Shown: one piece after another, positions 17,208 through 39,485 of the stretch | Layout of the letters: the number at the start of each line of letters is the position of its first letter | How positions within the stretch are numbered: the stretch's first letter is position 1 | IMG/VR virus record: IMGVR_UViG_2802429241_000009 | Direction: 5' to 3' (one strand) | From: a virus | Lineage: Duplodnaviria > Heunggongvirae > Uroviricota > Caudoviricetes | DNA: 39,485 nt | Notes under the pieces: model-generated | The model's database searches: none | What the model saw: the letters and a program-made list of their open reading frames with translations, nothing else | What the model was told of the DNA's origin: nothing | Program-made: the position numbers and the translations under genes

Positions 17208-17215
17208 GAGAGGAA

Positions 17216-18208: not shown

Positions 18209-18259
18209 CGCCTGTTATTAACCTGTGGGTCGTAACAGACCCACTAATGGAGAAAGAAG

Positions 18260-18697: not shown

Positions 18698-18707
18698 GGT
18701 GATATCG

Positions 18708-19043: not shown

Positions 19044-19059
19044 GCCTCGCGGATCAGAC

Positions 19060-19081
19060 AAGGGGCTTCGGCCCCTTTATT
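19060..19081 (+). terminator. Intrinsic terminator after the capsid-proximal gene block
   Basis: AGGGGC-TTCG-GCCCCT followed by TTATT. Confidence 0.6.
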
Positions 19082-19093
19082 GCAGGAGTGTAT

Positions 19094-19417
19094 ATGGAAC
19101 TCGTAAACCTCAAAACCGGCACTGACAGCTACCAGGATGAGAGCGGAGAAACCAGAACTCGCGATGAATACCCGTGGGGGCTGTGCATCACGCTTAATAA
19201 CGACACATTGAATAAGCTGAAGGCGCAACCTAAGGGCGTCGGAACAGAAGTAATGATAACTGCAAAGGCTGTTATTCGAGGCCTGTCTGCCAGAGAAACT
19301 GACGATGGCGTTAATCGCAGCGCCGATCTGCAGATCACTGATATGGCGATCGCTCCTGTTTCCGGGGATGTAGAAAAATCAGCGGCTGAAACTCTGTACG
19401 GCAATGGGGGTGAGTAA
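19094..19417 (+). CDS. Hypothetical virion protein
   Basis: ATG after GGAG; 108 aa. Confidence 0.45.
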   Translation: MELVNLKTGTDSYQDESGETRTRDEYPWGLCITLNNDTLNKLKAQPKGVGTEVMITAKAVIRGLSARETDDGVNRSADLQITDMAIAPVSGDVEKSAAETLYGNGGE

Positions 19418-20022
19418 TGGCCTCTGTAGTAGAGATCTGCAATCGTGCGCTGTCCAATATTGGCAATAGCCGCAGCATTAACAGCCTGACGGAAGCCAGC
19501 AAGGAAGCTGGGGAATGTTCGCTGCACTTTGAGGCCTGCCGTGATGCTGTTCTTTCTGATTTTGACTGGAACTTTGCTACCAAACGCGTGGCGCTTGCAG
19601 ATACGAGCAATCCACCGCCTGACTGGGAATATGCGTACCAGTACCCGTCCGATTGTCTGCGCATTACTGAAATTATGCTTCTTGGTGTACGCAATCCAAC
19701 AGCAGCAATGCGCGTTCAGTACGAAGTTGGTGCAGACACCAACGGAACAGGAAAGTTGATCTACACAGACCAGCCGCAGGCATGGCTCAAGTATGTATCT
19801 CGCGTTTCAGATGTGAACATGTTTGATGCCATTTTTATGGAGGCGTTGGCCTGGCGTCTTGCGGCAGCTATTAACATGGCGCTGACTGGGAATGCAGACC
19901 TCGGTACGTTTGCCCTCAATATGTACAATCGCGTGATTCTTAGTGCTGGCTCGCATAGCCAGAATGAATCACAGGAACCACAGCCACCGGTTGACGAGTT
20001 TACCATTGCGAGGTTGTCCTGA
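19417..20022 (+). CDS. Tail tubular protein A-like (adaptor), T7 gp11-like position
   Basis: 201 aa; N-terminal pattern loosely resembles T7 gp11 as recalled; gene order. Confidence 0.5.
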   Translation: MASVVEICNRALSNIGNSRSINSLTEASKEAGECSLHFEACRDAVLSDFDWNFATKRVALADTSNPPPDWEYAYQYPSDCLRITEIMLLGVRNPTAAMRVQYEVGADTNGTGKLIYTDQPQAWLKYVSRVSDVNMFDAIFMEALAWRLAAAINMALTGNADLGTFALNMYNRVILSAGSHSQNESQEPQPPVDEFTIARLS

Positions 20023-22493: not shown

Positions 22494-22957
22494 TGATCGA
22501 TGTTCAAATTATTCCCGCTACCGAAGAGCATCTTCAGATGATTTTGCCGGATGTTCGTCAGGCTGATATTGACGAACTGTATGCGGTATCGCTGATGACT
22601 ACCGAAGATGCGCTGCGCGTTGGTCTTCGCACTGCGACTATGGCCTGGTCAGGGTTCGCGAACGGAGAACTGGTAACCATGTTTGGTGTATCTCCGGCGT
22701 CAATGATCGGTGGCAATGGTACGCCCTGGCTGGTAGGAACCAGCCGTATTGAAAAATATCAGAAGACATTTCTGCGCCACTGCCGCCCTGTATTGCAGCA
22801 GATGCTGGCAGTTTATCCGCGCCTGGAAAACTACGTCGACGAGCGAAACCATGTTGCCAAAGCATGGCTGCACTGGCTTGGATTCAGGCTTGAAGAAGCC
22901 GCGCCTTATGGTGCTCTTGGTCTTAATTTCCACAGATTTCACATGGAGAGAAAATAA
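22493..22957 (+). CDS. Internal virion protein (T7 gp13-like position)
   Basis: 154 aa; ATGA overlap with the upstream gene. Confidence 0.45.
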   Translation: MIDVQIIPATEEHLQMILPDVRQADIDELYAVSLMTTEDALRVGLRTATMAWSGFANGELVTMFGVSPASMIGGNGTPWLVGTSRIEKYQKTFLRHCRPVLQQMLAVYPRLENYVDERNHVAKAWLHWLGFRLEEAAPYGALGLNFHRFHMERK

Positions 22958-23502
22958 TGTGCGATCCGGTTATTGCTGGTGGCGCAATGCTCGCCATGAG
23001 TGGCATTCAGGCATACACCCAGTACCAACAGGGAAAGTATGCCTCGAAGGTTGCAGAAGCGAACGCAGATATAGCCACAGCTCAGGCAAATGATGCAATA
23101 AACAGAGGTAACGCTGAAGCTGAGCAACGACGCAGAGAGACCCGACAGCGGCTTGGTACACAGGCGGCGACAATGGGGGCTACCGGCGCTGATTTATCTA
23201 CAGGTAACGCGCTGGATATATTTGGCGACACTGCCCAGTTTGGCGCTCTTGATTCGCTGACGACGGTGAATAACGCGCAACGCGAGGCTTACGGTTATCA
23301 GGTTCAGGCTGCCAACTATAAAGCAGAAGCCAGTTCAGCCCGTAAACAGGGGAATGTGGGAGCAGCAACAACATTGCTCACTGCGCCTCTGAAGGCATAC
23401 GGTGCGTACCAGATGTTTGGTGGGACGTGGAGTCCGTTTACTCAAAGCACTCCTGCGCCAATCGGGGCAGCAGCAGGAACCAGATTACCCGGAGGATTAT
23501 AA
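22957..23502 (+). CDS. Internal virion protein B-like (T7 gp14-like position)
   Basis: 181 aa, Ala/Gln-rich; gene order. Confidence 0.45.
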   Translation: MCDPVIAGGAMLAMSGIQAYTQYQQGKYASKVAEANADIATAQANDAINRGNAEAEQRRRETRQRLGTQAATMGATGADLSTGNALDIFGDTAQFGALDSLTTVNNAQREAYGYQVQAANYKAEASSARKQGNVGAATTLLTAPLKAYGAYQMFGGTWSPFTQSTPAPIGAAAGTRLPGGL

Positions 23503-26015: not shown

Positions 26016-27814
26016 GTTACTTTGGCCTTAATCCAGTAAACCAGAATCAGCAGCTTGACGAAGCAGCATCAAATCCAGCTGGCTTTAACAGCGATGTTGG
26101 TTTTTTCGACAATGCTGTAGGAGCGGCATTGTCTGGTTTGTACTCCGGGCTGGTGGCAAAGCCAGATCAGTTGCTATGGGCAGGGATGGATAAAATCGTA
26201 TCCCCGATTGCTCAGTTTGTTAACGAAAACACCTCGCTCAATGACACTTCAGTTTCATACATTGCTGAGCAGAGAAAACTAGCAGAGCAGCAGGTTAAGC
26301 GGCTGACGCCTGATGCCGCGACAACCGGAACCGCCGGGCAGGTTCTTTATGGGTTGTTCGATATGGGCGGGCAGGCTGTTGTCGGTACAACGCTCGGTGG
26401 TCCTGTCGGAGGTGCAGCGGCGGTAACTTCGCTACAGGGTTTTTCTGAGTTTGAACGGCTGACAGCACAGGGTGTTGATTTCAGGACGGCGCAGGAAGCG
26501 GGATTAGTGCAGGGCATTACTGCTGGTGCCGGAACACTGATCCCTATGAGCCTCGGGTTACGTGCTGGTGGTGCGCTGGCGGAAGGTGTGGCGGCTCAGC
26601 TTGCGCGGACGGGTGAGAGTTCAGTGCGACGCGCCGCAGCAACAGCAGTACGTGCAACGCCAGATATTGCCTATGCCGCAGGTACAAATATTGCGTTCGG
26701 TATGGCACAGCGTGGGCTTACTGCAAAAACGCTTCGTGATGGTGGCTATAGCGAAATGGCTAACCAGTATGATGTGTTGGATCGACAGGCAATTGCTATT
26801 GATGCTGTTCTTGGGGTGGCGTTTGGTGGTGTCGGCAGATTTATTAACTCTCGCGGCGAGTCTACAAGCGCACCAAATTTTTCACCAGTTGATATCGATG
26901 CTGCACTGGCGGCGAATGCCGCTCATCATGCTGAAATTGATATTGCTCCCGGCGTTCCGATCAACGTGCTTTCGCGTAATTCGCACATTCAGGCTCTGCG
27001 AAAAGCCATGTCTGATGTTAGCCAGGGGAGACCTGTAGACGTTGCCAGCATTGTTGAGTCTGCATCTTTCAGTGAAATTCCTGGGCGCAAGAGTCTGCTG
27101 TCTCAGGCAGTTAATGAGGCTCTGTCATCTGTAGATGATGGAGTAACGGCGCGCGCTATAGAAAATCGGTTGCTTGAAGAACAGGCCGCGCAGCTTTTGC
27201 CGCGTGGCGATAGACAGGTTTACCAGTCTGAAATCGCTAATAGCCAACGAATTATTGAAAATCTCACTGAACAGCGCGCACAAATTCTTGCAGAAGAGCC
27301 AACCGGTAGCGGTAAGGCTTTATCTCGTGCTCGATCAGATAAACAGGCCAGACTTCGCGATATTGACCAACGAATCCGGCAGGCACAAGAACGCCTGGAA
27401 TTTTCTCGTAACGCGTTTGCACCGCATGAGCCTGGCGGTCAGTTTTTTGAAGCTCGAGCAGAACTGGCTCGGAGACAGCAGGCAGAAAGTGAACTTAATG
27501 CTCAGGCTGTTTCATTCTATAAAACAGCAGAGGTCAGGACGCCAGACGAAGTAGCTCCTTTTGAGCCTGATAAAATATTGCAACAGGCAGAACAAAAAAT
27601 GATGTCAGATCAGGCAGGAGATATTGATCTGCGCATAGCTGAAGACTCGCTGCTTGAATCACCTGACATGATAATCACCGTGCTGGATGATGATGGTAAT
27701 CCACAATCGCGCAGTGCGCGTGAAGTACTGGATGAAGCGAACAGGGAAAGTGAGCAGGCAATACAGGATTCCAGCCTGTTTGATGTCGCTGTGGCGTGTT
27801 TCTTGAGAGGTTAA
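26012..27814 (+). CDS. Internal virion / ejection protein
   Basis: 600 aa; ATGA overlap with the upstream gene. Confidence 0.55.
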   Translation: MSYFGLNPVNQNQQLDEAASNPAGFNSDVGFFDNAVGAALSGLYSGLVAKPDQLLWAGMDKIVSPIAQFVNENTSLNDTSVSYIAEQRKLAEQQVKRLTPDAATTGTAGQVLYGLFDMGGQAVVGTTLGGPVGGAAAVTSLQGFSEFERLTAQGVDFRTAQEAGLVQGITAGAGTLIPMSLGLRAGGALAEGVAAQLARTGESSVRRAAATAVRATPDIAYAAGTNIAFGMAQRGLTAKTLRDGGYSEMANQYDVLDRQAIAIDAVLGVAFGGVGRFINSRGESTSAPNFSPVDIDAALAANAAHHAEIDIAPGVPINVLSRNSHIQALRKAMSDVSQGRPVDVASIVESASFSEIPGRKSLLSQAVNEALSSVDDGVTARAIENRLLEEQAAQLLPRGDRQVYQSEIANSQRIIENLTEQRAQILAEEPTGSGKALSRARSDKQARLRDIDQRIRQAQERLEFSRNAFAPHEPGGQFFEARAELARRQQAESELNAQAVSFYKTAEVRTPDEVAPFEPDKILQQAEQKMMSDQAGDIDLRIAEDSLLESPDMIITVLDDDGNPQSRSAREVLDEANRESEQAIQDSSLFDVAVACFLRG

Positions 27815-27819
27815 ATTAA

Positions 27820-30294
27820 ATGAGACAGGAATGTATACAAGCGGTCCAGCAGGCGGCGCAGCGCACGTTAACGGCGCGAGAAATACAGAACATTGAAGAC
27901 CGCATTTATCGCAATATGCGCTCCATTGCTCGTGATGACCCTATGTCGTGGCGACAACTTTCCGAGTCAGAGCGGCTGTATCGTGCAGCACAATTGGCAT
28001 CTGAAGAATTACAGCGAGAAGCGGCATTAAAGAAACGTCGTGTGGCTCTCACTATAGCCGCACGTCAGAGATTGGATAAATTTATCAATAGCTATCAAGG
28101 GGCTGATGGGAAACTTGGCGCTCTTAACCGTACTATTGCTTTTAATGCAGACGGTAAATCGAATTTCCTCTCTGTTGAGTCCAGAACAAAAGCCACTCGT
28201 GATTATGCATTGAGTCAATTGCAGGAGGCATTCGAAGCAGTTGATCCTCGCTTTTTTGGCCTGTTTGAAGATGAAGCGGGCGTGCGTGACCTGGTATATG
28301 AAATGCGAGGGCAAAATACTGGCAATGCTAAAGCAAGAAAAGGTGCTAAGGCGTGGAGAGAAGTGACAGATCTACTCCGCCGCCGGTTTAATGATGCTGG
28401 TGGGGACATTGGCTATCTCGAAAACTGGGGGATCCCTCAACATCATTCTATGGAAAAGGTTGGGGCGGTATCAAAGGATAAGTGGGTTAGCGATGTTATA
28501 GGTAAGCTGGATCGCAAATATTATATCCGAGCCGATGGACAACTGATGAATGATGCCGAGTTGTCTGCATTTCTTGGAGAGGCTTATAACACGATCGCTA
28601 CTGGTGGGCTGAATAAGCTTACTGATACCGGAATGCGAATTTCCGGCGCACGTGCTAACCGTGGTAATGCATCACGACAGATACATTTCAAAGATGCAGA
28701 TTCCTATCTCCAATATCAACAACTTTATGGCGATCGCTCTCTATGGGAAATCATGGTCGGTCACCTGGAAGGGATCAGTAAAGATATTGCTCTGGTGGAA
28801 ACATATGGCCCAAACCCCGATCATGTTTTCCGTTCCCTTCTTGATCAGGTGAAGGCTGAAACGGCAACAGCTAACCCGAGTAAAACCGGTAGCGTTGAGC
28901 GGCTGGCGAACAAAACAGAGAACCTGTACAACTTTATTTCCGGAAAGACACAGCCTGTAGCTAATCCGCACATCGCGCGATGGTCTGACAATATCCGCAA
29001 CTGGCTGGTTGCCAGCAGACTCGGATCCGCGTTGCTGTCATCGTTCTCTGATCTTGGAACCATGTATCTGTCTGCGAAGGTTACCAACCTTCCAATGAAC
29101 CAGTTATTCCGCAACCAGCTTGAAGCTATGGACCCAACGAACCGTACTGAGCTTGCGCGGGCGCGCCGAGCTGGTCTGGCGATGGAATCTCTACTTGGCA
29201 GCGTTAACCGCTGGGCGATGGATAATATGGGGCCGTCTGTGTCTCGTTGGGCGGCAACGGCGGTAATGCGTGCCAGTGGGCTTACAGCATGGTCAGATGC
29301 GCACAAGCGCGCCTATGGCGTAACTATGATGGGAAGCCTGGGAGAAGTAGTGTCACGGACACCAGACCTTCGTAGCCTCGATGACTCTGATTTTCGTATC
29401 CTGAAAAGCAAAGGGATTACTGACACAGACTGGAGCGTATGGAAGCTGGCGCAACAGGAGGACTGGGGGAACGGTAATAATACGATGCTGACACCGGAAA
29501 GCATTATGCGTATCCCTGATTCAGCAGTTAAACATCTTGGTGAGCCTGAACGTGTGAAATTTGAGGCAATGCGTAAACTGCTCGGTGCCGTAACTGAAGA
29601 AGTTGATATGGCTGTTATTACACCGGGCGCACGTGAACAGATGTTCGTAGGGTCTGGTCTTCAGCGTGGAACATGGAAAGGTGAATTAACGAGAAGTGTT
29701 TTCCTGTTTAAATCGTTCCCTATCTCGGTAGTTATGCGTCACTGGCATAGAGCTATGGGGATGCCGTCTGCTGGTGGGCGTGCGGCATATATAGCAACGT
29801 TTTTAGCAAGCACAACCATGCTTGGTGCTCTTTCCATGCAGATTACTGATCTTATTAATGGGAGAAATCCAAAAGAAATGACCGGTGACAACATGGTTAA
29901 ATTCTGGATAAATGCATTTTTAAAAGGTGGTGGGGCAGGGTTGTATGGTGATTTTCTTTTCTCTGACCACACCAGGTACGGGAGCGGCGCACTAGCGTCG
30001 ATGCTTGGCCCGGTAGCTGGTCTGGTTGATGACGTAGTGAAGATTGCTCAGGGCATACCGTTAAATGCTGTGGAAGGGAAGAATGAGCAGACTGGTGGTG
30101 ATCTGGTTAAGCTTGGGAAAGGTTTGATGCCTGGTGCGAATCTCTGGTACTTGAAGGCGGCTCTCGATCACATGATCTTTAACCAGATGCAGGAGTATTT
30201 TTCACCAGGCTATTTGCGTAAAATGGAGCAACGTTCGAAGAAAGAGTTTAATCAGACATACTGGTGGCGACCTCAGGATGTCACTCCGCAATAA
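27820..30294 (+). CDS. Internal virion / ejection protein (T7 gp16-like position)
   Basis: 824 aa; GAGAGG SD. Confidence 0.55.
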   Translation: MRQECIQAVQQAAQRTLTAREIQNIEDRIYRNMRSIARDDPMSWRQLSESERLYRAAQLASEELQREAALKKRRVALTIAARQRLDKFINSYQGADGKLGALNRTIAFNADGKSNFLSVESRTKATRDYALSQLQEAFEAVDPRFFGLFEDEAGVRDLVYEMRGQNTGNAKARKGAKAWREVTDLLRRRFNDAGGDIGYLENWGIPQHHSMEKVGAVSKDKWVSDVIGKLDRKYYIRADGQLMNDAELSAFLGEAYNTIATGGLNKLTDTGMRISGARANRGNASRQIHFKDADSYLQYQQLYGDRSLWEIMVGHLEGISKDIALVETYGPNPDHVFRSLLDQVKAETATANPSKTGSVERLANKTENLYNFISGKTQPVANPHIARWSDNIRNWLVASRLGSALLSSFSDLGTMYLSAKVTNLPMNQLFRNQLEAMDPTNRTELARARRAGLAMESLLGSVNRWAMDNMGPSVSRWAATAVMRASGLTAWSDAHKRAYGVTMMGSLGEVVSRTPDLRSLDDSDFRILKSKGITDTDWSVWKLAQQEDWGNGNNTMLTPESIMRIPDSAVKHLGEPERVKFEAMRKLLGAVTEEVDMAVITPGAREQMFVGSGLQRGTWKGELTRSVFLFKSFPISVVMRHWHRAMGMPSAGGRAAYIATFLASTTMLGALSMQITDLINGRNPKEMTGDNMVKFWINAFLKGGGAGLYGDFLFSDHTRYGSGALASMLGPVAGLVDDVVKIAQGIPLNAVEGKNEQTGGDLVKLGKGLMPGANLWYLKAALDHMIFNQMQEYFSPGYLRKMEQRSKKEFNQTYWWRPQDVTPQ

Positions 30295-30303
30295 GGAAGT
30301 GTT

Positions 30304-30477
30304 GTGTTTTTAATTATTTTGAGTGTGATAATTTCTGGTGGGTTGTTATTTATTGACCGCTACAAATATTTTCTTAACCCTCAGACTCAAGCTATTTGCT
30401 GGTTCATCTTTGTTGTGCAGGGAATAGTTCTTGTTGCAAGCCTTATTGAGGGGAGGCCTCTGATTTTTACTGGGTAA
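30304..30477 (+). CDS. Small hydrophobic membrane protein (57 aa, two predicted TM segments)
   Basis: Not in the ORF track; GTG start after AAGGAAG; VFLIILSVIISGGLLFI and ICWFIFVVQGIVLVASLI hydrophobic stretches. Confidence 0.3.
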   Translation: MFLIILSVIISGGLLFIDRYKYFLNPQTQAICWFIFVVQGIVLVASLIEGRPLIFTG

Positions 30478-30489
30478 ATAGGTGACTAC

Positions 30490-30786
30490 ATGCAAGCGAT
30501 AGGATTCATTGTTTATATCGTCGTTGGCCTTTTTCAGTTGGCAGCAATTATGGCTGGGCTTGAATCAAGGTGGGGATTGCACTGGATAATTGCAGCCCCC
30601 ATTGCTTTCATCGTGAGCTATATTCCATTTGTTGGAGCGATTGTTGGTATGGTTGGTGCTGTGGATGTATGGCGGTGGGAGTGGTGGCAGGCTGGCCTTC
30701 TCTTCTTTGGTGGGATCATCTTTGCTATTGTCTGCGGTGGAATGTCATCATTTTTCGAACGGCTATCATTCAGAAAAGGAACGTGA
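30490..30786 (+). CDS. Small integral membrane protein (98 aa, about 3 TM segments)
   Basis: Strongly hydrophobic ORF; GGTGA SD; followed by a hairpin plus T-run terminator. Confidence 0.5.
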   Translation: MQAIGFIVYIVVGLFQLAAIMAGLESRWGLHWIIAAPIAFIVSYIPFVGAIVGMVGAVDVWRWEWWQAGLLFFGGIIFAIVCGGMSSFFERLSFRKGT

Positions 30787-30794
30787 CATGTCAC

Positions 30795-30819
30795 AGGCCG
30801 CTTTCGCGGCCTTGTTTTT
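30795..30819 (+). terminator. Intrinsic terminator after the 98-aa membrane protein gene
   Basis: AGGCCGC-TTTC-GCGGCCT followed by TGTTTTTA; lies between convergent genes. Confidence 0.65.
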
Positions 30820-30979
30820 AACGAATGCCACCGCCACCCGGGCGGGAATCCGCAGAACGCCCACCGCAGCGGGAGCCGTCAGCGGCAGTATCGCTGTCGT
30901 GCTGACAACGACCGGCAAAAGCCTGAGTTGAAGCTACCAGAGACAACAAAACGAACAGTGCAGCAAATGCTTTTTTCAT
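30818..30979 (-). CDS. Signal-peptide microprotein (53 aa; mature peptide about 31 aa with 2 Cys)
   Basis: MKKAFAALFVLLSLVASTQAFA looks like a Sec signal peptide with an AFA cleavage site; convergent with the upstream + gene; competing + ORF 30788..30931 crosses the terminator. Confidence 0.35.
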   Translation of the reverse strand: MKKAFAALFVLLSLVASTQAFAGRCQHDSDTAADGSRCGGRSADSRPGGGGIR

Positions 30980-31051
30980 TGTGAAATTTCCATCCATAAG
31001 CCACCTCAATGTGGCGTCAATGAGTGTAGCACTGACTTTTGTTTCGTCCAC

Positions 31052-31074
31052 AAAAAAAGCCCGCAGCGCTGGCT
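31052..31074 (-). terminator. Intrinsic terminator at the 3' end of the 179-aa membrane protein gene
   Basis: Minus-strand imperfect hairpin overlapping the stop codon followed by TTTTTTTG. Confidence 0.5.
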
Positions 31075-31613
31075 TACCAAAACTTGTACCACGGGGATTT
31101 ATCCTTCAATGGGCAATCCTTCCATCGTGTGGCCAACCATTCATATTCTTTAAAATATGTGTTTATGTTTTCTTTTTCTCTAATGGCTTGTATAAGAGGT
31201 AGCGCAATCTGATAGTTATTTACAACGGAGCTGTAAAATACTTCCTTAATCATGGTCTCATCATAAGTTTTCCGCTTCACGCTCACAGCCATGCGTTCGT
31301 AGAAACCTAGACAGTAAATTATTTCTCTCTTCTCTGTCTTTTCTTCATCCGTAAGATCAGCCTGCCCATTGCTTGGATACATATAAGAGCGGAATGATTT
31401 GTTCGATTCGTGAATGCGGCGCATAGTAGATAGGCCTTTCTTATAATCTACATCAAACCTGCTTTCACCAAGGAATACTGAAGTGTGTACTTTTCTCGCT
31501 GTATTTACATTATAAATAATAGTAGCGATAGCTATGAACAAGCCAAGCGAAACCGCGACTGCACTTACGATTTGAGCCACAGCCATGGCAAATTGCATTT
31601 CTTCACTTAACAC
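31074..31613 (-). CDS. Membrane-anchored hypothetical protein (179 aa), AT-rich gene; candidate superinfection-exclusion or defence protein
   Basis: GTG start after GGAGA; N-terminal TM (AMAVAQIVSAVAVSLGLFIAIATIIY); visibly lower GC than neighbours; hairpin/U-run structures at both ends. Confidence 0.55.
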   Translation of the reverse strand: MLSEEMQFAMAVAQIVSAVAVSLGLFIAIATIIYNVNTARKVHTSVFLGESRFDVDYKKGLSTMRRIHESNKSFRSYMYPSNGQADLTDEEKTEKREIIYCLGFYERMAVSVKRKTYDETMIKEVFYSSVVNNYQIALPLIQAIREKENINTYFKEYEWLATRWKDCPLKDKSPWYKFW

Positions 31614-31630
31614 AAACTGTCTCCAGACAT

Positions 31631-31653
31631 GAAAACGGGGCCTAATGGCCCCG
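31631..31653 (-). terminator. Hairpin plus short U-run between the antirepressor gene and the 179-aa gene (terminator or attenuator)
   Basis: Minus-strand CGGGGCC-ATTA-GGCCCCG followed by TTTTC, ending about 20 nt before the GTG start of the 179-aa gene. Confidence 0.45.
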
Positions 31654-31822
31654 TCATTAAACTATCCGAATGTTAAACGCCTTCGTACTCGTCAAATTTT
31701 CTCATGTGGGCTCCTCCTGTATCGGTGCATAATCGCTATGGATCACCCGTGAGGTAATAGTAAGCTATTCACCTGCAATCTGTACAGAATTATTTAAAGG
31801 CACATCCCTGTGCCGCCGCTCG

Positions 31823-32509
31823 TCAGAAGAACCCTGCCTTGTCGTTGATGTACTCCGCGTGCGTCTGGATATCACGCAGGCATTTGCTCACACCGACGAT
31901 GTAGCAGAACATGGTGGTCAACTCCGCCGCCGCGCCCGATACGTCGTGCCCGTCTTCCTGTAACTGGTTCAGCAGATTCATCAGCAGTGAGTTCTCCGTC
32001 AGGCCGAGAACACCAGACGGCGAGTGAATCAGGCTGCGGTAGCCTGGCTTCAGCGGGGCGCTGTAGGTTTTGTTCTCTATCTTCATCGCCTGCATCACTG
32101 CTGACGCCGTGGCGTTGGCTACCTGGTCGGCAACCATCTTTATGCGTTCTTCCTGCGGGAGCGAGTTTTTAATGTAACTTCCGGTGCGGCGGATCTGAGG
32201 AAGAACCTCACCTGTAACCCATTTACGAAAGCGGTAGGGGATAGTGCCTGGTGTCACCGCATCGCGGCAGCGGAGGATCAGTGTGTAGAGGCCTGACTCG
32301 CTGATAATATTGGTTTCGCCTTGACGACCTAAGTTAAATTTAGCCCTTTCATCATCATCAAGAGATTTGATTGACATGGTGGGGTTTGTCAGTTGAAGAG
32401 CTTTAATAACGTCTTTGGCAACAAACCAAGGATTTCCATCAATAACAATGGCTCGAATGGTTGCTTCTGATTCAAAATGAAAAACAGATGGGGTTACGTT
32501 AGCAGTCAT
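31823..32509 (-). CDS. BRO-N domain antirepressor-like protein
   Basis: N-terminal SVFHFESEATIRAIVIDGNPWFVAKDVIKALQL resembles the BRO-N signature; AGGTG SD before the ATG; long structured leader upstream. Confidence 0.7.
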   Translation of the reverse strand: MTANVTPSVFHFESEATIRAIVIDGNPWFVAKDVIKALQLTNPTMSIKSLDDDERAKFNLGRQGETNIISESGLYTLILRCRDAVTPGTIPYRFRKWVTGEVLPQIRRTGSYIKNSLPQEERIKMVADQVANATASAVMQAMKIENKTYSAPLKPGYRSLIHSPSGVLGLTENSLLMNLLNQLQEDGHDVSGAAAELTTMFCYIVGVSKCLRDIQTHAEYINDKAGFF

Positions 32510-32667
32510 GGCAATCACCTTTTAGTATGGTTAATCACCACCTGAGGTGCAAATCTCGTTGGTGGTGAGACGTACAGGGTTTGCACTACCGGCTAAAAGG
32601 ACCCGGCGCACCTTTCGGTGCCCCTGCACGTCCCACCATAATTCTGGCATGACTGTGCTATACGCAT

Positions 32668-32690
32668 AAAAAAACCACGTCTGGCGTGGT
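32668..32690 (-). terminator. Intrinsic terminator inside the antirepressor upstream region (attenuator or 3' end of a short RNA)
   Basis: Minus-strand ACCACG-CCAGA-CGTGGT followed by TTTTTTTAT. Confidence 0.6.
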
Positions 32691-32750
32691 ATGCGCCTTT
32701 TAGTAATCCGGGGTGCAAATCCCGGCACTGGATTTTGCCAGTGCTCGATT

Positions 32751-32779
32751 ACTATGGCACAAGAGGAGTGCGATGTAAA
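32751..32779 (-). promoter_or_regulatory. Candidate leftward promoter of a short structured RNA / antirepressor leader
   Basis: Minus-strand -35 TTTACA (plus 32774..32779), 17-bp spacer, -10 CATAGT (plus 32751..32756); predicted start near 32744. Confidence 0.3.
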
Positions 32780-32780
32780 T

Positions 32781-32795
32781 TTACCGCAAAGGTAA
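32781..32795. promoter_or_regulatory. Operator-like palindrome TTACC-N5-GGTAA adjacent to a candidate leftward promoter of the antirepressor leader
   Basis: Exact; abuts the candidate -35 (TTTACA on the minus strand). Confidence 0.5.
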
Positions 32796-32873
32796 TGATA
32801 AACGCTGATAAATATAAAAATCAACCGTATTTGGTTGATTGCGTTTAACGCTTGATCACCTGAAAGCAAGATA

Positions 32874-32888
32874 TTACCTTTAAGGTAA
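32874..32888. promoter_or_regulatory. Operator-like palindrome TTACC-N5-GGTAA just upstream of the zinc-ribbon protein gene
   Basis: Exact; overlaps the alternative ATG at 32888. Confidence 0.5.
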
Positions 32889-32908
32889 TGTTATTGTGGG
32901 GAAAAGCA

Positions 32909-33637
32909 ATGGAAGTTTTCTGGATAGTTGTTGGTGTGGTTGCGGTGATTATTTACGTTATCAACCAGAACAAGACTAAGATCTCTGATCGTACGGTCGT
33001 TAATCATAACAAAACGATAAAGACCGAAGATGGGGAGATAACGATTAATCGTACACAGGTGATAGAACACACCTCTACTCAGTTTCAAAAAACTGGAGGT
33101 AATGCGCCTAATATTTCCGCACCTCCTGCTTATGATAGTGCGGTAATCCAGACATATTATAAACAGCAGGAGTTAGCAAAAGAGAGGCAACTGATTCAGC
33201 CAAAGCCGTTTACAGCTGAGCTTCCACCTGGAGTGTCAACGCGTCCGGCATATCATGGAAGATTCCCTGGTGATGACATATCGTCTCAGTCATCTAAAAA
33301 AGCACCTCAGGCAGTATCAGAGCCAGCAAGAATACCTTCTGTATCGCCGCCAAAAGAAGAATCAGCTAACAGAGTTTCAAGTGGTAGCAAGCAGTGCTTG
33401 CGATGCAGAATAAACCTTCCATATGAAAAATTCAGGAAATCGTCAAAAAATCCAGATGGATTGACTAAGTGGTGTGCAAGGTGTCTCGATGGCCCAAAGA
33501 ATACACGCCATATGAAGTGGTGCCCAATTTGTAATGTCCGCAGAAAACGAACCAGTTTTTACCCTAATAATCAAAATGCGGATGGCTTAATGGCATGGTG
33601 CAAAACGTGCTGGGACGAGCACAAAGCGAAACGATAG
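32909..33637 (+). CDS. Membrane-anchored protein with a tandem C-terminal zinc-ribbon-like repeat
   Basis: N-terminal TM (VFWIVVGVVAVIIYVI); Ser/Pro-rich linker; two repeats of C-x2-C-x(17-20)-DGL-x3-WC-x2-C; ATG at 32888 is an alternative start. Confidence 0.55.
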   Translation: MEVFWIVVGVVAVIIYVINQNKTKISDRTVVNHNKTIKTEDGEITINRTQVIEHTSTQFQKTGGNAPNISAPPAYDSAVIQTYYKQQELAKERQLIQPKPFTAELPPGVSTRPAYHGRFPGDDISSQSSKKAPQAVSEPARIPSVSPPKEESANRVSSGSKQCLRCRINLPYEKFRKSSKNPDGLTKWCARCLDGPKNTRHMKWCPICNVRRKRTSFYPNNQNADGLMAWCKTCWDEHKAKR

Positions 33638-33660
33638 GCCGCTCTTGCGGCCTTTTCTTT
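33637..33660 (+). terminator. Intrinsic terminator after the zinc-ribbon protein gene, between convergent genes
   Basis: GGCCGC-TCTT-GCGGCC followed by TTTTCTTT. Confidence 0.65.
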
Positions 33661-33916
33661 ATGTGGTTTGTTTTCGTAGTTGTTCGGCACAATAGTCGAG
33701 ATGTGTTTGCAGATCCTGCATAGACATCTGTGAGCTGGTGACGTAGTTAATCAGTGCAGTCAGTTCGGCAAGTGGGCCATCGACATTAAATCCATCCTTA
33801 TCGAGATCCCGGAGTAATTTCATCAAGTGCGATCCCTCCACCAGTGATCTGACGCCTCCCGGCGTGTGAATCCTTTCGGTAAATCCGTCTTCCAGTGGAT
33901 AGTGATACCGCTGCAT
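33659..33916 (-). CDS. Small antirepressor-domain protein (85 aa), putatively LexA-controlled
   Basis: Homologous by eye to the C-terminal about 80 aa of the BRO-N protein at 31823..32509 (shared IH.P.GV, LM.LL, DG..V.G..AELT, D.QTH..Y); GGAGAAG SD; LexA-box-like site 21 nt upstream. Confidence 0.55.
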   Translation of the reverse strand: MQRYHYPLEDGFTERIHTPGGVRSLVEGSHLMKLLRDLDKDGFNVDGPLAELTALINYVTSSQMSMQDLQTHLDYCAEQLRKQTT

Positions 33917-33935
33917 CTTATCTTCTCCATGTAAT

Positions 33936-33955
33936 AACTGTATATTTATACAGTA
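33936..33955. promoter_or_regulatory. LexA box (SOS box) candidate
   Basis: AACTGTATATTTATACAGTA: CTGT-N8-ACAG with an all-A/T spacer, 18 of 20 matches to TACTGTATATATATACAGTA as recalled; 21 nt upstream of the ATG of the minus-strand gene 33659..33916. Confidence 0.7.
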
Positions 33956-33992
33956 TCAAATAATTTGTTTGCTATCCAGCACGTTTTGCAAA

Positions 33993-34007
33993 TTACCTGA
34001 AAGGTAA
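33993..34007. promoter_or_regulatory. Operator-like palindrome TTACC-N5-GGTAA in the divergent region between the small antirepressor-domain gene and the tailspike
   Basis: Exact inverted repeat. Confidence 0.5.
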
Positions 34008-34111
34008 TATCTATTCGTATTCACAGTCTTTCTATCCATATGTGGTTTTTCAGGTAATAGAATAACCAGATATGCGGCGCAACGGGTGCTGCGACTATCT
34101 GGAGATTTAAC

Positions 34112-36244
34112 ATGACGGTCTCAACCGAAGTTGACCACAACGAATACACCGGTAACGGCGTTACGACATCATTTCCGTATACCTTCCGTATTTTCAAAAA
34201 ATCCGACCTGGTTGTTCAGGTGTCTGACCTGAACGGGAACGTAACAGAATTGGTTCTGGATACCGGTTATACGGTAACAGGGGCGGGCACTTATAGTGGC
34301 GGTTCTGTGGTTCTTCCGTCTCCGCTTGCTACTGGATGGCGAATTACGATAGATCGTGTGCTTGATGTAGTGCAAGAGACAGACCTTCGCAATCAGGGAA
34401 AGTTTTTTCCCGAAGTGCATGAAGATGCCTTTGACTATCTGACGATGCTGATCCAGCAATGTTTTGGATGGTTCAGACGTGCATTGATGAAACCCACGTT
34501 GCTTGCAAAATATTATGATGCAAAGCAAAACAGAATTTCTAACCTTGCAGATCCATCATTTGAGCAGGACGCTGTAAATAATCGCTCAATGCGTAATTAT
34601 GTCGATGCTGCAATCGCCGGGGTTGTTGGTGGTTTTGGCTGGTTTATTCAGTATGGTTCTGGGGCAGTATACAGAACGTTCCAGGATAAGATGCGAGATA
34701 CCGTCAGTGTTCGCGATTTTGGGGCGAAGGGGGATGGTTTTAGTGATGATACCCCATATATTCAGCAAGCAAATGATACAGCCACATCAATTGGTGCCAC
34801 ATTACATTTCCCAAGAGGGGTTTACGTTTGTACTGATGGGATTGATAAAACGTGCGAGTGGACTGGTGTTGGTGCGGCAAAAATAGGTGTATTTCCACTA
34901 AACGATGATAAAGTTTATATGGTTCCAGGAAATAAGCACAAATTGCCTGGAACTTGCCTCTTATTCAAAGGTACGGGTAGTAAGGTATTTACTACAGGAA
35001 GAAGTGATAAATTCTCATCTATGCGTTATTGTATCCGTAATATCGGTCGAAAAGATAAAGGGCTCACTGCATTTGGTAGGGATTTTTCTGTCGTTTGCGA
35101 TTTTGACTTTAAAGATCAAGATGGAAACATAACGCAACCTAATAATGATAATTCTGCGGATTATGATGTTGGGTTGATACTTGACAATACCGATTTGTCA
35201 GGACCAGTTAATGTTACTGTTGGTGGTTACTTTAAAAAATCTGGAATTGTACACATGGGGCAGGATCCCGATGGTTGTACAATTATCAATACACGCACAA
35301 TGGGGAACATTGGTCTTGCTATTATTGGTGATCAAACAGGAACTAACAGTGCATTCAATATGCACGGTGGCGCTATTTTTGGCAATGATCACCATAGTCG
35401 AAACACCGAACAAGGTGTTGAAAAATGGGGTGAGCATGCACTTTACATTGATATTCCATCATCGTCAGGAAACGGTTCTAGAAACGGTATTTCTTTTTAC
35501 GGAACCTGGTTAGCGACTAAGTTGGATGTTCCTGTAAAATATGACAGATGTGGAGCCGTTCAGTATTTTGGTGTGGTGTTTGAGAATGCAACACAAGCAG
35601 GTAGCCAACAAGCTGGAGGTATTAAAAAACAAATTGGAACCAGTAATACAGGTGATATAGGTTTCTTTGGGTGCAGATTTAATTCAGACCAGATACGTAT
35701 TTCTGGTGCCTTATTGGAGACTGCGACGGAATCGACAGTGATCGTTTCTGGAAGTAATGCTGGATATGGTGTTGAATTTTGGAAAGGAAAGGTTGGAGGG
35801 CGTTTTACAGGAAGCAAAAATCAAACAAATATTCAACTAACGGATGATCCAACAAAAACAACTAGTGGTATTGTTCTTCGTCGTGACAATACAGGAAATT
35901 TCCATGTAATGAAAGATAATGACATTAAATTATCAGTTGATGATAAAGGCATTATCACTAGATCATCTTATACAGTTGTTACTGTTTCTGCTGGAGAAAT
36001 TACTGTTACCAGAAACTTTCATAGATTATCTGGAGGGGCGCAAGAGTTATCTACTATTAATGGTGGTAATGAAGGAATGAGGGTAATTCTTACACGTAAT
36101 ACATCAGCGGATGACATAACATTGAAGAATCAGATAGGAAACCTTCGTATCAATGGTGATTTCATGTTAGGTGCTTTTGACACCATCGAATTGATCTACA
36201 TCGGAGGATACTGGAATGAGATTTCACGTGTAAATCGCTCTTAA
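34112..36244 (+). CDS. Tailspike / tail fiber with beta-helix depolymerase-like central domain
   Basis: N-terminus MTVSTEVDHNEYTGNGVTTSFPYTF resembles the conserved podovirus tail-fiber anchor domain; VRDFGAKGDGFSDDTPYIQQA resembles pectate-lyase-type beta-helix starts; distal part AT-rich. Confidence 0.8.
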   Translation: MTVSTEVDHNEYTGNGVTTSFPYTFRIFKKSDLVVQVSDLNGNVTELVLDTGYTVTGAGTYSGGSVVLPSPLATGWRITIDRVLDVVQETDLRNQGKFFPEVHEDAFDYLTMLIQQCFGWFRRALMKPTLLAKYYDAKQNRISNLADPSFEQDAVNNRSMRNYVDAAIAGVVGGFGWFIQYGSGAVYRTFQDKMRDTVSVRDFGAKGDGFSDDTPYIQQANDTATSIGATLHFPRGVYVCTDGIDKTCEWTGVGAAKIGVFPLNDDKVYMVPGNKHKLPGTCLLFKGTGSKVFTTGRSDKFSSMRYCIRNIGRKDKGLTAFGRDFSVVCDFDFKDQDGNITQPNNDNSADYDVGLILDNTDLSGPVNVTVGGYFKKSGIVHMGQDPDGCTIINTRTMGNIGLAIIGDQTGTNSAFNMHGGAIFGNDHHSRNTEQGVEKWGEHALYIDIPSSSGNGSRNGISFYGTWLATKLDVPVKYDRCGAVQYFGVVFENATQAGSQQAGGIKKQIGTSNTGDIGFFGCRFNSDQIRISGALLETATESTVIVSGSNAGYGVEFWKGKVGGRFTGSKNQTNIQLTDDPTKTTSGIVLRRDNTGNFHVMKDNDIKLSVDDKGIITRSSYTVVTVSAGEITVTRNFHRLSGGAQELSTINGGNEGMRVILTRNTSADDITLKNQIGNLRINGDFMLGAFDTIELIYIGGYWNEISRVNRS

Positions 36245-36338
36245 CTTCTTATCGAAAATAGAGGTTATTTTTATTCATATATGGTTTATGTATCATAAAG
36301 CCACCAGTTAATTGGTTACACACTTAAAAGGTGGTTTT

Positions 36339-36743
36339 ATGATAGCTCATCCAACAAGTGAGTCTTTAAATCAATGGCTTAGCATGGGGTCTCTTGCTGC
36401 TGTTATTGCTGGGGTTCCTCCGGAGGTGGCTCTTGGTGCTTTATCTGGCGCGGTGATTTTTGTTACCTCAGCTGTAGAGTATCCGATCCGCCGTCGGGTG
36501 CTACTGTCGATGCTCAGCTTTCTTTGCGGCCTTCTCTTCTACAAACCAGCAGCATCAATTCTTATCGGCATAGCCAGCCTGATCCCTACCATCACGCAGG
36601 ACTCTTTTGAAAAAGGGATTGTTTTCTCTGCTGGCGCATTCGTGTCAGCAATTGTCGCCGTGCGTATTGGTATATGGCTCTATCACCGTTCCGATAATCC
36701 ACGCGAGTTAATTCCGGGGAGAAAAGACGATGGTAACGCATGA
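36339..36743 (+). CDS. Holin/antiholin-like multi-pass membrane protein
   Basis: Hydrophobic ORF at the start of the lysis cassette; ATG after AAAGGTGG (track ORF starts at TTG 36312). Confidence 0.5.
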   Translation: MIAHPTSESLNQWLSMGSLAAVIAGVPPEVALGALSGAVIFVTSAVEYPIRRRVLLSMLSFLCGLLFYKPAASILIGIASLIPTITQDSFEKGIVFSAGAFVSAIVAVRIGIWLYHRSDNPRELIPGRKDDGNA

Positions 36744-37038
36744 TTTTTTTTTGCTTATCACCAATGCAGTTATTTGCACTGGCATAGCAATTCGCGTTGT
36801 CACATTCCGGCGTAACGGCTCTCAACACCGAAGGTGGGGAGGATGGCTTGCTTATTTCCTGATTGTTGCTGCGGCCAGTATTCCTGTTCGTGTCGCCTAT
36901 GCAATCTGGTTACGTACGCCAATGGCTGTGGATTTATCTGAGGTCATTATCAACGCTGTCATGCTAGCTGCGGTTATTAAAACGCGCGGTAACGTCGTTC
37001 AAATTTTCAAAGTATCGAGGTCTAAATATGGAGATTAA
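36730..37038 (+). CDS. Holin-like membrane protein (about 3 TM segments)
   Basis: 102 aa hydrophobic protein immediately upstream of the endolysin. Confidence 0.55.
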
Positions 37039-37657
37039 ACAATTCCAGCGAGCTGCTGGTATTAGCGAGGCGTTGGCCTCACGCTGGTTCTCGCATATAA
37101 CTTCTGCGATGAAAGAGTTTGGTATCAGCAAACCCGAAGATCAGGCAATGTTTATTGCTCAGGTCGGGCATGAGTCTGGGGGCTTCACCCGGTTGCAGGA
37201 AAATTTCAACTACAGCGTCACCGGACTGGCTAACTTCGTTCGGGCTGGGCGTCTCACTCAGGGACAGGCCAACGCATTGGGGCGCCGTGCTGGTGAACCA
37301 CCATTGCCACTTGATCGCCAGAGAGCGATCGCCAATCTGGTGTACAGCAAACGCATGGGGAACAATGCCTCTGGTGATGGCTGGAATTACCGTGGCCGCG
37401 GACTTATCCAGATTACCGGTTTGAATAACTATCGTGATTGCGGAAACGGCCTGAAAGTGGACCTGCTGGAGAATCCTGAACTGTTGGCGCAGGACGAATA
37501 TGCGGCTCGTAGCGCGGCGTGGTTCTTCGCCAGCAAAGGATGCATGAAGTATACCGGCGATATTGCACGTGTAACTCTGATTATCAATGGTGGCCGGAAC
37601 GGCATCGACGACCGGCGCGCGCGGTACATCACTGCCAGTAAGGTGCTGGCGGTATGA
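37028..37657 (+). CDS. Endolysin, glycoside hydrolase family 19-like
   Basis: [15 protein letters not shown] resembles the GH19 signature; GHESGGF segment; position between holin and Rz. Confidence 0.8.
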
Positions 37658-38136
37658 TCTGGGCATTCGCAAAAGCATACTGGAAACAGTTGGTTATCAT
37701 GGCGATGCTTGCTGTTCTGGTCATATCAGGAGTTGTTGCCTGGAATGTACACGGTAGCCGTCAGTACGACGCCGGGTATGCACAGGCGAAGGAAGACCGC
37801 AAAGCTGAAGATGAGAGAGTTCGTCAGCACTACGAACAGGAGAAAGCGACCAATGAACGTGAAGCTCAGCAGAGGATCGACCAGGCGCGCAATGATGCTC
37901 TTGATGCTGCCGCTCGCGCTGGCCGGTTGCAGCAACAACTCTTTGCCATCCGTGAGCAGCTCAGGCAGTATAACGCCATTGTCGGCGCTGGGACGTCAGC
38001 CGCAGACACCGGAGTTTTGCTTGCCGACGTGCTCAGCAAATCTCTCGAGAGAAACAGACAACTGGCAGAGTATGCTGACCGGGCATCCGAAGCCGGAAGA
38101 GTCTGCGAAAAACAGTACGACACTCTGACCAGATAG
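37654..38136 (+). CDS. Rz-like inner-membrane spanin
   Basis: N-terminal TM then coiled-coil, Arg/Gln-rich periplasmic domain; ATGA overlap with the endolysin stop; contains an embedded +1-frame lipoprotein ORF. Confidence 0.7.
37853..38128 (+). CDS. Rz1-like outer-membrane lipoprotein spanin (embedded in Rz, different frame)
   Basis: ATG after AGGAGA; lipobox LPLALAGC; Pro/Ser-rich mature part; entirely within the Rz gene. Confidence 0.55.
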   Translation: MNVKLSRGSTRRAMMLLMLPLALAGCSNNSLPSVSSSGSITPLSALGRQPQTPEFCLPTCSANLSRETDNWQSMLTGHPKPEESAKNSTTL

Positions 38137-38321
38137 CATGGCATTTTTCATGGTACTGATTTCCGGTGACGGTATATAAAACGGTACTAGAAAAATGAAG
38201 TTTTGGAAAAACGTTATCACTCAATTGGTTATGATTGTCGTAAATAATTGAGTGGGAATAAACCCGAACACTAAATGCTGAGGTTTTCTATTCGTACGAG
38301 GCTTCAGCATATTTTGGTAAC

Positions 38322-38354
38322 AAAACCCTCTGTTCATCCACTGGAGGGTTTTTT
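38322..38354 (+). terminator. Intrinsic terminator after the lysis cassette (A-run / hairpin / T-run, potentially bidirectional)
   Basis: AAAACCCTC ... GAGGGTTTTTT with a 13-nt loop; a second hairpin at 38275..38310 precedes it. Confidence 0.65.
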
Positions 38355-38411
38355 ATGCAATTAAAAAGCCCATAATCCTCACGAATTACAGGCCTGGTAG
38401 TGGAAAGACGA

Positions 38412-38954
38412 TTAATTAAACCAACTGTCTGATTTATTCTCTTCTGCTTTACCCACGCTTTTCATCAAATCACGACCACCTTCAGTCATATTCCTGTTAG
38501 CGTCAGCTTCAGATTGTACAACATCGGTTTGCGCTGCTTTGTGTTTCAGTTCCTGATCGATAAATTCGTTCTCACGCTTAACGCGCGCTTCTTCTTTTGC
38601 CAGCGCCAGTTTTTGCTTCTGAATCTCTAAGTTGCGCAGCTCATCTTCATAACTTTGATCGCGCTTTTTATCCGCAGTGAATTCGGCGTCCCGTTTATCC
38701 TGGCGAGCTTTTTTATCCGCTGCTGCTGCTGCCGCTCTTTTATTCGCTGCGGCCTGAGCGTTTGCGCGCCGTTGCTTCTCTTGCTGGATTTCCCTGTTGC
38801 GCTCCGCAACCCATTCGTCATGCTGCCTTTGTTCTTCATTTTTGCCTTGCTGTTCAGCTTCTGCGACCGCAGAGAGTTGATCCTGTAATGAAGAGGCGAA
38901 AGCCGGGCTACTAACAGCAGCTAATATGGCGGCGCAAAGAAAAACTTTCTTCAT
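38412..38954 (-). CDS. Exported coiled-coil protein (signal peptide, Lys/Ala/Glu/Arg-rich); host flank or prophage cargo
   Basis: MKKVFLCAAILAAVSSPAFA signal peptide; charged low-complexity mature region. Confidence 0.6.
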   Translation of the reverse strand: MKKVFLCAAILAAVSSPAFASSLQDQLSAVAEAEQQGKNEEQRQHDEWVAERNREIQQEKQRRANAQAAANKRAAAAAADKKARQDKRDAEFTADKKRDQSYEDELRNLEIQKQKLALAKEEARVKRENEFIDQELKHKAAQTDVVQSEADANRNMTEGGRDLMKSVGKAEENKSDSWFN

Positions 38955-38969
38955 GAGTCCTCCTGATAG

Positions 38970-39485
38970 TTAGCTCTTTTCAGGACATTTTGTATTTGGC
39001 TGAATACGCGTTTCGTTATAAGTGGTGGTAATAACAACGGCTAAACCCGTTGTGAACTGGCATTCTTTACCCACCTGGGTGGAGGTGTACACTTTGGTGC
39101 CTTCCTTATAAGTTAAAGAGACACCTTCCACTAAGGTTTTATCATTCACCATAGTACCCGCTGCCGCGCCTACAGCTCCGCCACCAACTGCACCAGCCGT
39201 TGTTCCGGAGTTACTACCAGATCCAACGTTATGGCCGATAACGCCGCCTGCGACAGCGCCAATAAGTGCGCCAAAGGCTTGCGCATTCCGTTTATTTTGT
39301 GAGTTATCTACGGCAACTTTTGCGGGAAGAATGGAGATAATATTAACGGTTTTAGTTTCTTGCTTTGTATTCAGTTGATCGGTTTGATAGACATCGGCGG
39401 CATGGTCGTCAGCATTTGACTGGCATCCTGCCAGGGTGAATGACGCTAAAATTGCCACAGGCAGAAAACATTTTTTAAATTTCAT
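38970..39485 (-). CDS. Glycine-zipper outer-membrane lipoprotein (YcfJ-like); host flank or prophage cargo
   Basis: Lipobox LAGC; GALIGAVAGGVIGHNVGSG glycine-zipper segment resembling E. coli YcfJ as recalled; start codon is the last three bases of the window. Confidence 0.6.
   Translation of the reverse strand: MKFKKCFLPVAILASFTLAGCQSNADDHAADVYQTDQLNTKQETKTVNIISILPAKVAVDNSQNKRNAQAFGALIGAVAGGVIGHNVGSGSNSGTTAGAVGGGAVGAAAGTMVNDKTLVEGVSLTYKEGTKVYTSTQVGKECQFTTGLAVVITTTYNETRIQPNTKCPEKS

Follow-up and report, generated by a model that had tools for sequence, protein, structure and literature searches.

Genes and features at the two ends of the window

The window analysed here, the whole 39,485-nt stretch of a Caudoviricetes record (IMGVR_UViG_2802429241_000009), begins with an integrase gene and ends with two genes on the minus strand. 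An earlier note, made from the letters alone, had drawn attention to these two genes for exported proteins past the lysis cassette, and both are indeed present, at 38412..38954 and 38970..39485. The features of the two ends are as follows.

1..1251, plus strand: tyrosine integrase of the P4 type, 416 aa long with a GTG start, at the left prophage end (open reading frame)
37654..38136, plus strand: Rz-like spanin, last phage gene (Pfam DUF2514, E = 8e-44; same position as phiV10 p30)
37853..38128, plus strand: Rz1 lipoprotein, embedded, 91 aa, lipobox LAGC (translation)
38137..38246, plus strand: P arm of the phage attP, with which the phage DNA ends on the right (homology to phages, none to empty sites)
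38165..38175, plus strand: candidate arm-type integrase site GGTGACGGTAT (suggested by repeats in the P' arm)
38247..38259, plus strand: att core, attR copy, 13 bp, ATTGAGTGGGAAT (sole stretch common to attP, attB, attL and attR)
38260..38411, no strand: host guaA–yfgI intergenic region (identity to empty-site E. marmotae)
38275..38310, plus strand: host hairpin 1, first terminator-like hairpin after guaA (fold; unchanged in empty-site genomes)
38322..38352, both strands: host hairpin 2, predicted bidirectional guaA/yfgI terminator (folds on both strands, with a T-run on both)
38366..38395, minus strand: host hairpin 3, proximal terminator-like hairpin of yfgI (terminator scan; 13-pair stem in the fold)
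38412..38954, minus strand: yfgI, host gene, exported protein of 180 aa (Pfam DUF5384, PF17358, E = 4.8e-60)
38970..39485, minus strand: yfgH, host gene, SlyB-like glycine-zipper outer-membrane lipoprotein of 171 aa (Pfam PF05433, E = 8.8e-8)

Most of the window is phage DNA of a well-known type. Identity of the prophage to ZX5, HEMP4 and phiV10 amounts to about 98%, and in the case of ZX5 and phiV10 it extends over the greater part of the prophage. Positions 1..25000 displayed 97.9% identity to vB_EcoP_ZX5 with a coverage of 92%, and positions 25001..38259 displayed 96.2% identity to HEMP4 with a coverage of 73%. Outside the junction region, identity to Uetakevirus genomes is 95-98%, and the comparisons with ZX5 and HEMP4 place the prophage within the genus Uetakevirus by genome-wide similarity. 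It differs from phiV10, which carries an O-antigen acetyltransferase gene between tailspike and holin, in that this gene is lacking here. The integrase gene has the same length as that of phiV10, and the Pfam domains Arm-DNA-bind_3, Phage_int_M and Phage_integrase were found on a protein identical to the window integrase. The earlier note had considered this gene to be cut at position 1; in fact, the window opens exactly on the GTG start and the reading frame is complete, so that attL alone, which the note rightly described as unseen, lies out of view.

At the other end, the embedded Rz1 gene occupies the same position relative to Rz as the Rz1-like gene p30a of phiV10, and a non-coding stretch of 275 bp separates the Rz stop from the two minus-strand genes. 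A small reading frame of 18 aa within this stretch (38195..38251, MKFWKNVITQLVMIVVNN), which ends in the core, was rejected as a gene: in the prophage of CP173213 a 1-nt indel disrupts the frame and the ATG is missing, and phage SPN1S has no start codon at the matching position.

YfgI has a Sec-type signal peptide (MKKVFLCAAILAAVSSPAFA) followed by a charged, repetitive body, and it matches the PF17358 profile over its full length (positions 1-145 of 145), while searches of NCBIfam and of PDB sequences returned no match for it. YfgH, on whose start codon the window ends, carries the lipobox LAGC at residues 18-21 and scores above the cut-off for PF05433. It was also matched nearly over its full length to SlyB (PDB 7ojf; E = 2.6e-9, residues 11-163 against 8-154), a stress-induced outer-membrane lipoprotein with which it has the lipobox and glycine-zipper architecture in common. 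Given this match, "SlyB-like" is a better label for the lipoprotein than the "YcfJ-like" of the earlier note, though YfgH is a paralogue of SlyB and not SlyB itself. In literature, YfgH has been described as a SlyB-family lipoprotein with a predicted role in outer-membrane integrity, yfgI mutants as sensitive to DNA damage (nalidixic acid), and the orthologues in Salmonella Typhi (srgIL) as being under SdiA regulation (PMC11619404).

Both genes are ordinary residents of the chromosome. A search with 38137..39485 gave matches in 5419 of 5426 complete E. coli genomes, all chromosomal and with a median of one place per genome; the matching genes are annotated as yfgI (DUF5384) and yfgH (outer-membrane lipoprotein) and are 89-92% identical to those of the window. 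In E. coli K-12, the order at the prophage-free site is pdeF-yfgG-yfgH-yfgI, followed by the convergent guaA-guaB. The yfgH-yfgI pair of the window has the same gene order as that of K-12 (b2505, b2506), and its synteny convergent with guaA is present in K-12 as well as in E. marmotae. The proteins belong to the same families in K-12 and in the window, while the DNA is about 90.5% identical, which corresponds to species-level alleles.

The att core and the position of the junction

Base composition offers no useful marker of the junction, as the prophage has a GC content of 49.0% and the flank one of 46.2%. In the phage collection, 27 records matched 38137..39485, and 25 of these, including phiV10, O157 typing phages, ZX5, HEMP4, phiv142-3, SPN1S and other Uetakevirus-type phages, matched positions 38137..38259 only (query 1..123). 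The same stretch is 96.7% identical to phiV10 and 99.2% identical to the prophage of E. coli Eco_23-2678. The P arm (38137..38246) revealed no homology to the empty sites compared, and homology to empty sites of E. coli begins at 38244 or 38250 (query base 108 or 114). The stretch common to phage and host homologies is thus no longer than about 10-16 bases, a pattern that marks an att core.

Within this overlap lies the 13-bp core ATTGAGTGGGAAT (38247..38259), whose start is found about 110 bp past the Rz stop at 38136, in a layout like that of phiV10. It encodes the last codons of guaA, ATT GAG TGG GAA T.., i.e., I-E-W-E followed by the first stop-codon base, and represents the first 13 bases of the published 17-bp core attgagtgggaatgatt. 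In the study on ZX5, this core was located 190 bp 5' of the phage integrase and at the 3' end of host guaA, was verified at attB, attL and attR through PCR and Sanger sequencing, and was stated to be the proven attP of phiV10 and epsilon15, too (PMC9782041). The system found here agrees with that of phiV10, epsilon15 and ZX5 in the core sequence, in the target (the last codons of guaA), in the neighbour yfgI and in the placement of the core, which follows Rz and precedes a P4-type integrase by 190 bp. At the junction of the window, 13 of the 17 published bases are present and the last four are of host type (AAAC), as expected.

The missing left end could be read from contig PTSM01000011.1 (L028), which was found by the exact integrase protein and is 100% identical to window positions 1..7000; being identical over the 7 kb compared, it probably, but not provably, derives from the same genome. 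On this contig, guaB and guaA lie directly upstream of int, 194 bp separate the end of the 13-bp core from the start of int, and the full 17 bases of attgagtgggaatgatt are present at attL. The gene guaA (4231..5808) ends with ...ATT GAG TGG GAA TGA, the direct core repeat restoring the reading frame. Upstream of the window integrase itself, guaA is accordingly expected to end with ...ACTATTGAGTGGGAATGATT, 190 bp before int. The direct repeat upstream of the integrase that the earlier note had suggested looking for is thereby found. The four sites compare as follows.

attB, E. marmotae CP072689 (L032): ...ccagctact ATTGAGTGGGAAT AAACccgaac...
attP, phiV10: ...cgtaaata ATTGAGTGGGAAT GATTaacagc...
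attL, PTSM01000011.1 (L028): ...ccagctact ATTGAGTGGGAAT GATTaacagc... (host left, phage right)
attR, window: ...cgtaaata ATTGAGTGGGAAT AAACccgaac... (phage left, host right)

The junction is therefore defined to the base: phage DNA extends to 38246, the core covers 38247..38259, and the host sequence takes over at 38260. Over its whole 1226 bp, the DNA beyond the core (38260..39485) is 100% identical to CP072689, in which the site is empty, and to CP173213. Since both genomes have been reported as E. marmotae (PMC12826111, PMC12017327), the host species is E. marmotae, which also explains why the flank is only about 90% identical to E. coli (89-92%), E. whittamii and E. ruysiae, and 78% identical to E. 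albertii. A scan of species-representative genomes with YfgI found none with more than 96% identity at the protein level or more than 91% at the DNA level. The exact YfgI protein lay with guaA directly adjacent and no prophage in between at six of the eight places shown, including CP072689. Excision in silico, joining positions 5601..5806 of the L028 contig to window positions 38260..38459, yielded a sequence of 406 bp that is found exactly (406/406) in the prophage-free CP072689.

Taken together, region 38137..39485 is almost certainly the attR of a phiV10/epsilon15-type (Uetakevirus) prophage, joined to the chromosome of Escherichia marmotae. Within this reading, the position of the junction, the identities of the genes and the exact rebuilding of the empty site are direct observations. 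Comparison with prophage-free genomes of this host species, a check that the earlier note had proposed, places the junction inside its predicted interval (38137..38411), and the note's preferred reading of a host flank is thus borne out, the two genes being core chromosomal yfgI and yfgH. In itself, the junction is an ordinary one, already known for Uetakevirus phages. Its one peculiarity lies in the attB of E. marmotae: K-12 has all 17 core bases in common with attP, E. marmotae no more than the first 13, with AAAC in place of GATT. This shows that a core identity of 13 bp is enough for integration, which is shorter than described for E. coli and adds a nuance to the published core without contradicting it.

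Right ends of this type are widespread. The query 38100..38259, which spans the final part of Rz, the P arm and the core, matched 508 of the 5426 complete E. coli genomes, so that prophages with such a right end can be regarded as common. The 481 E. coli genomes in which 80% or more of the query 38137..39485 is covered are not readable as a prophage count, because this figure mixes occupied sites with empty sites that carry a long intergenic variant.

Cargo, host flank and the hairpins

The earlier note had left room for the two genes being prophage cargo, i.e., morons or lysogenic conversion genes modifying the host envelope. Their products are envelope proteins, like many conversion factors, and phage TL-2011b provides an apparent precedent, as both its GenBank and its RefSeq record (JQ011317 and NC_019445) hold yfgI and yfgH downstream of Rz; it is the only phage with these genes among the matching records, the other 25 of which lack them. 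The genes do occur inside a related phage genome on paper, but only because this record overruns its own attR. TL-2011b was reported to be inserted in guaA (PMC3293862), and its record is prophage-derived, assembled from the chromosome of EHEC O103:H25. It begins with TAACAGC..., directly after the attL core, and contains a complete ATTGAGTGGGAATGATT at 41251..41267 (L002 4111..4127), ahead of the two genes. Past this attR core it runs on for 3.5 kb through yfgI, yfgH, yfgG and a small ORF into the beginning of pdeF, in the gene order of the K-12 chromosome. The presence of yfgI and yfgH in the TL-2011b record is thus leftover host flank, a boundary artefact and not cargo. In the window, too, both genes lie to the right of the att core and not between attL and attR, they remain in place upon excision in silico, and they occupy the same locus in prophage-free K-12 and prophage-free E. 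marmotae, besides being chromosomal in nearly every E. coli genome searched. We consider a role as cargo to be extremely improbable; the envelope proteins YfgH and YfgI have nothing to do with the phage.

A boundary placed elsewhere, either at the hairpins or past yfgH, with the 13-bp match being coincidental or the flank having been co-transferred by specialised transduction, deserves hardly any more credence. It could be argued for by the shortness of the core shared with the host (13 bp) and by the flank, which at 89-92% identity to E. coli looks foreign at first sight. The divergence, however, is simply that between species, as the flank is identical to E. marmotae genomes both with and without the prophage. 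On the other side, the left flank of the L028 contig is 99.7% identical to CP072689 and CP173213 over 5.8 kb. Both flanks therefore match E. marmotae, which means that both are native. Furthermore, the core occurs as a single exact copy in the window, where only 0.10 chance matches would be expected even at up to one mismatch.

The two hairpins noticed earlier near 38275..38310 and 38322..38354 are present, the second being mapped by folding to 38322..38352. The 49-nt segment 38270..38318, containing hairpin 1, folds with -16.2 kcal/mol (z = -4.3; 0 of 200 shuffles fold as well), and the 45-nt segment 38318..38362, containing hairpin 2, with -12.7 kcal/mol (z = -2.9). A consensus terminator scan missed both, since their loops exceed its 8-nt limit, and folding was used for their confirmation. 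The third hairpin, absent from the earlier account, stands just after the yfgI stop. In empty-site genomes, hairpin 1 follows directly after the guaA stop, and the counterpart of hairpin 2 in E. coli K-12 is AAAACCCTCTGTTACTACAGAGGGTTTTTT. The hairpins at 38275..38395 are host DNA, which at the empty site is predicted to terminate the convergent transcripts of guaA and yfgHI. That those at 38275..38352 are instead phage-encoded terminators of the late or lysis operon is suggested by their stable folds within 140-220 bp of Rz/Rz1, but they lie to the right of the core, recur base for base after guaA in prophage-free genomes and were not found in free phage genomes in the search of the phage collection, while the phage has a terminator of its own on the opposite side of attP, which comes to lie at attL, so that this assignment has next to no chance of being correct.

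Since the host flank of TL-2011b is present in the databases, a naive search of phage databases will mislabel these host genes as phage genes; the affected records, including RefSeq NC_019445, carry about 3.5 kb of E. coli chromosome, with yfgI, yfgH, yfgG and part of pdeF. Although the junction result in itself matters little, a right boundary that is exact to the base removes two ordinary host genes from lists of candidate phage cargo.

Integration at guaA and putative arm-type sites

P4-type tyrosine integrases with an N-terminal arm-binding domain follow the standard core-exchange mechanism. In line with its type, the integrase of the prophage recombined the core of the phage attP, which is placed about 110 bp past the Rz stop and precedes int by about 190 bp, with its identical counterpart at the guaA 3' end; strand exchange takes place inside the common core, and arm-type sites on both sides are expected to assemble the intasome. 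At the left end, the last codons of guaA are rebuilt from the core, so that GuaA still ends with IEWE and is intact in the lysogen. As the attB of E. marmotae has only the first 13 core bases, the stop codon of guaA changes from the native TAA to the TGA of the phage. At the right end, the P arm (38137..38246) and the core are followed by untouched host DNA, comprising the terminator hairpins of guaA/yfgI and the convergent yfgH-yfgI operon.

The host hairpins now stand between the phage lysis operon and yfgI and probably stop read-through. Terminators and coding regions of yfgHI are untouched, their promoter lying beyond the window, and expression of yfgHI is likely to be unaffected by the integration. 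For ZX5, integration at the guaA site was reported to be without phenotypic effect (PMC9782041). In the lysogen, guaA is followed by the phage hairpin AACCCTCTGTTTTTACAGAGGGTTTTT, which is annotated as a terminator in phiV10 and is contained in a 61-nt stretch that folds with -17.4 kcal/mol. This phage terminator beside the core has a 9-bp stem (CCCTCTGT-loop-ACAGAGGG) that is the same as in the guaA/yfgI terminator of E. coli.

Repeats in the arms point to putative binding sites of the integrase. The 11-mer GGTGACGGTAT of the P arm recurs once in direct orientation in the P' arm at attL, where its 9-bp core TGACGGTAT is also present once in inverted orientation; the 9-mer occurs six times in the window, compared to 0.17 expected. 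The GGTGACGGTAT site is kept in phiV10, TL-2011b and SPN1S. The first 50 bases of the P arm are nearly identical in Salmonella phage SPN1S (47/50) and the remainder diverges; the P-arm and P'-arm blocks are perfectly conserved in this phage, while the surrounding arm DNA has diverged. Judged from these repeats, the GGTGACGGTAT copies are candidate arm-type sites.

In addition, the int reading frame has three copies of (G)TGACGGTAT, all within its first 520 bases (171, 261 and 513). It is conceivable, though we regard it as rather unlikely, that the attP of this phage group is larger and more host-mimicking than described, comprising intragenic arm sites and a replacement terminator. If so, arm binding by the integrase might reach into its own gene and autoregulate int, and the common 9-bp stem would mean that the phage supplies a replacement for the terminators that become separated from guaA.

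The guaA site of E. marmotae is thus occupied by guaA-targeting Uetakevirus prophages, too, with a core identity of 13 bp versus 17 bp. The spacer between guaA and yfgI has a length of 152 bp and an extra hairpin in E. marmotae, and likewise in some E. coli such as TB06052, versus 92 bp in K-12. Different elements with different cargo use the same hot spot. GIsul2 is reported as another island at the 3' end of guaA (PMC9376610), and E. coli TB06052 harbours an island with a DUF262 gene, whose junction ATCGAGTGGGAATAAAC stands directly before the intergenic region on the yfgI side.

Repeated 9-mer and further sequence features around the attachment site

The 9-mer TGACGGTAT was found in six copies against 0.17 expected (count over the window), and L028 (contig PTSM01000011.1), which supplies attL, has two further copies in the P' arm, beyond those in the window.

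Copies of TGACGGTAT around att and int
Window 171..179, plus strand, in the int ORF
Window 261..269, plus strand, in the int ORF
Window 513..521, minus strand, in the int ORF
Window 38167..38175, plus strand, in the P arm
L028 5936, plus strand, in the P' arm at attL
L028 5965, minus strand, in the P' arm at attL

Three copies fall in the first 520 bases of the int ORF, two of which encode RDGI. phiV10 and TL-2011b share every att- and int-proximal copy, and SPN1S retains them except for the one at 513. These copies are candidate arm-type integrase sites that would reach into int. A 9-bp inverted repeat, CACTCAATT / AATTGAGTG, is present at window 38218..38226 and 38246..38254; it is confined to the phage side, its right arm overlaps the att core, and it may represent a core-type or accessory-protein site. 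An 18-codon ORF (MKFWKNVITQLVMIVVNN, window 38195..38251) ends in the core and was rejected as a gene, probably being none because neither its frame nor its start codon is conserved in the CP173213 prophage and SPN1S. A copy of the core with one mismatch, ATTGAGTGGGAGT, is located at 20808..20820 within an 823-aa structural gene (20022..22493) and is probably due to chance.

The guaA 3' end and its terminators

Directly 3' of the attP core lies a phage terminator, AACCCTCTGTTTTTACAGAGGGTTTTT (phiV10, L003 2672..2704; L028 about 5855..5885), whose stem is essentially identical to that of the bidirectional host guaA/yfgI terminator in its E. coli form, AAAACCCTCTGTTACTACAGAGGGTTTTTT (compared regions: K-12, L004 6867..6958; window 38322..38352). 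Upon integration, the phage terminator takes the place of the host terminators behind guaA, and it could be captured host sequence or a case of mimicry.

In E. coli TB06052 (L001 1..3023), this site is occupied by an island of another kind, which has a pair of DUF262-domain genes and terminates in ATCGAGTGGGAATAAAC immediately ahead of the intergenic region on the yfgI side. Separate elements thus share the guaA 3' end as an integration hot spot. GIsul2 also appears to use it (PMC9376610).

Differences among related prophages and the TL-2011b record

Some other genomes encoding the identical YfgI carry related prophages in the same attB, with differing tailspikes.

Loci in related prophages
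L036 (E. marmotae F12YCO47, CP173213), 8923..12042
L035 (CP056165), 9023..11998

The CP173213 tailspike contains the endosialidase domains End_N_terminal, End_beta_propel, End_tail_spike, and Peptidase_S74, which suggests a K1-capsule-specific variant. The tailspike end in the window (36000..36299) is AT-rich, with 35% GC. No O-antigen acyltransferase gene is present at window 36245..36311, the gap separating the tailspike (34112..36244) from the first holin-like gene (36312..36743), whereas at this position phiV10 carries the serotype-conversion gene oac, the E. coli Eco_23-2678 prophage an acyltransferase (serotype conversion), and SPN1S the serotype-conversion gene GtrA.

The public record of phage TL-2011b (JQ011317.1 / NC_019445.1) continues past its own attR core into roughly 3.5 kb of chromosomal DNA from E. 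coli.

Host stretch in the TL-2011b record
About 41268..44784 (L002 4128..7644): yfgI, yfgH, yfgG, a small ORF, and the beginning of pdeF

In the RefSeq copy, which also has this host stretch, the yfgH region is labelled 'DNA methyltransferase'.
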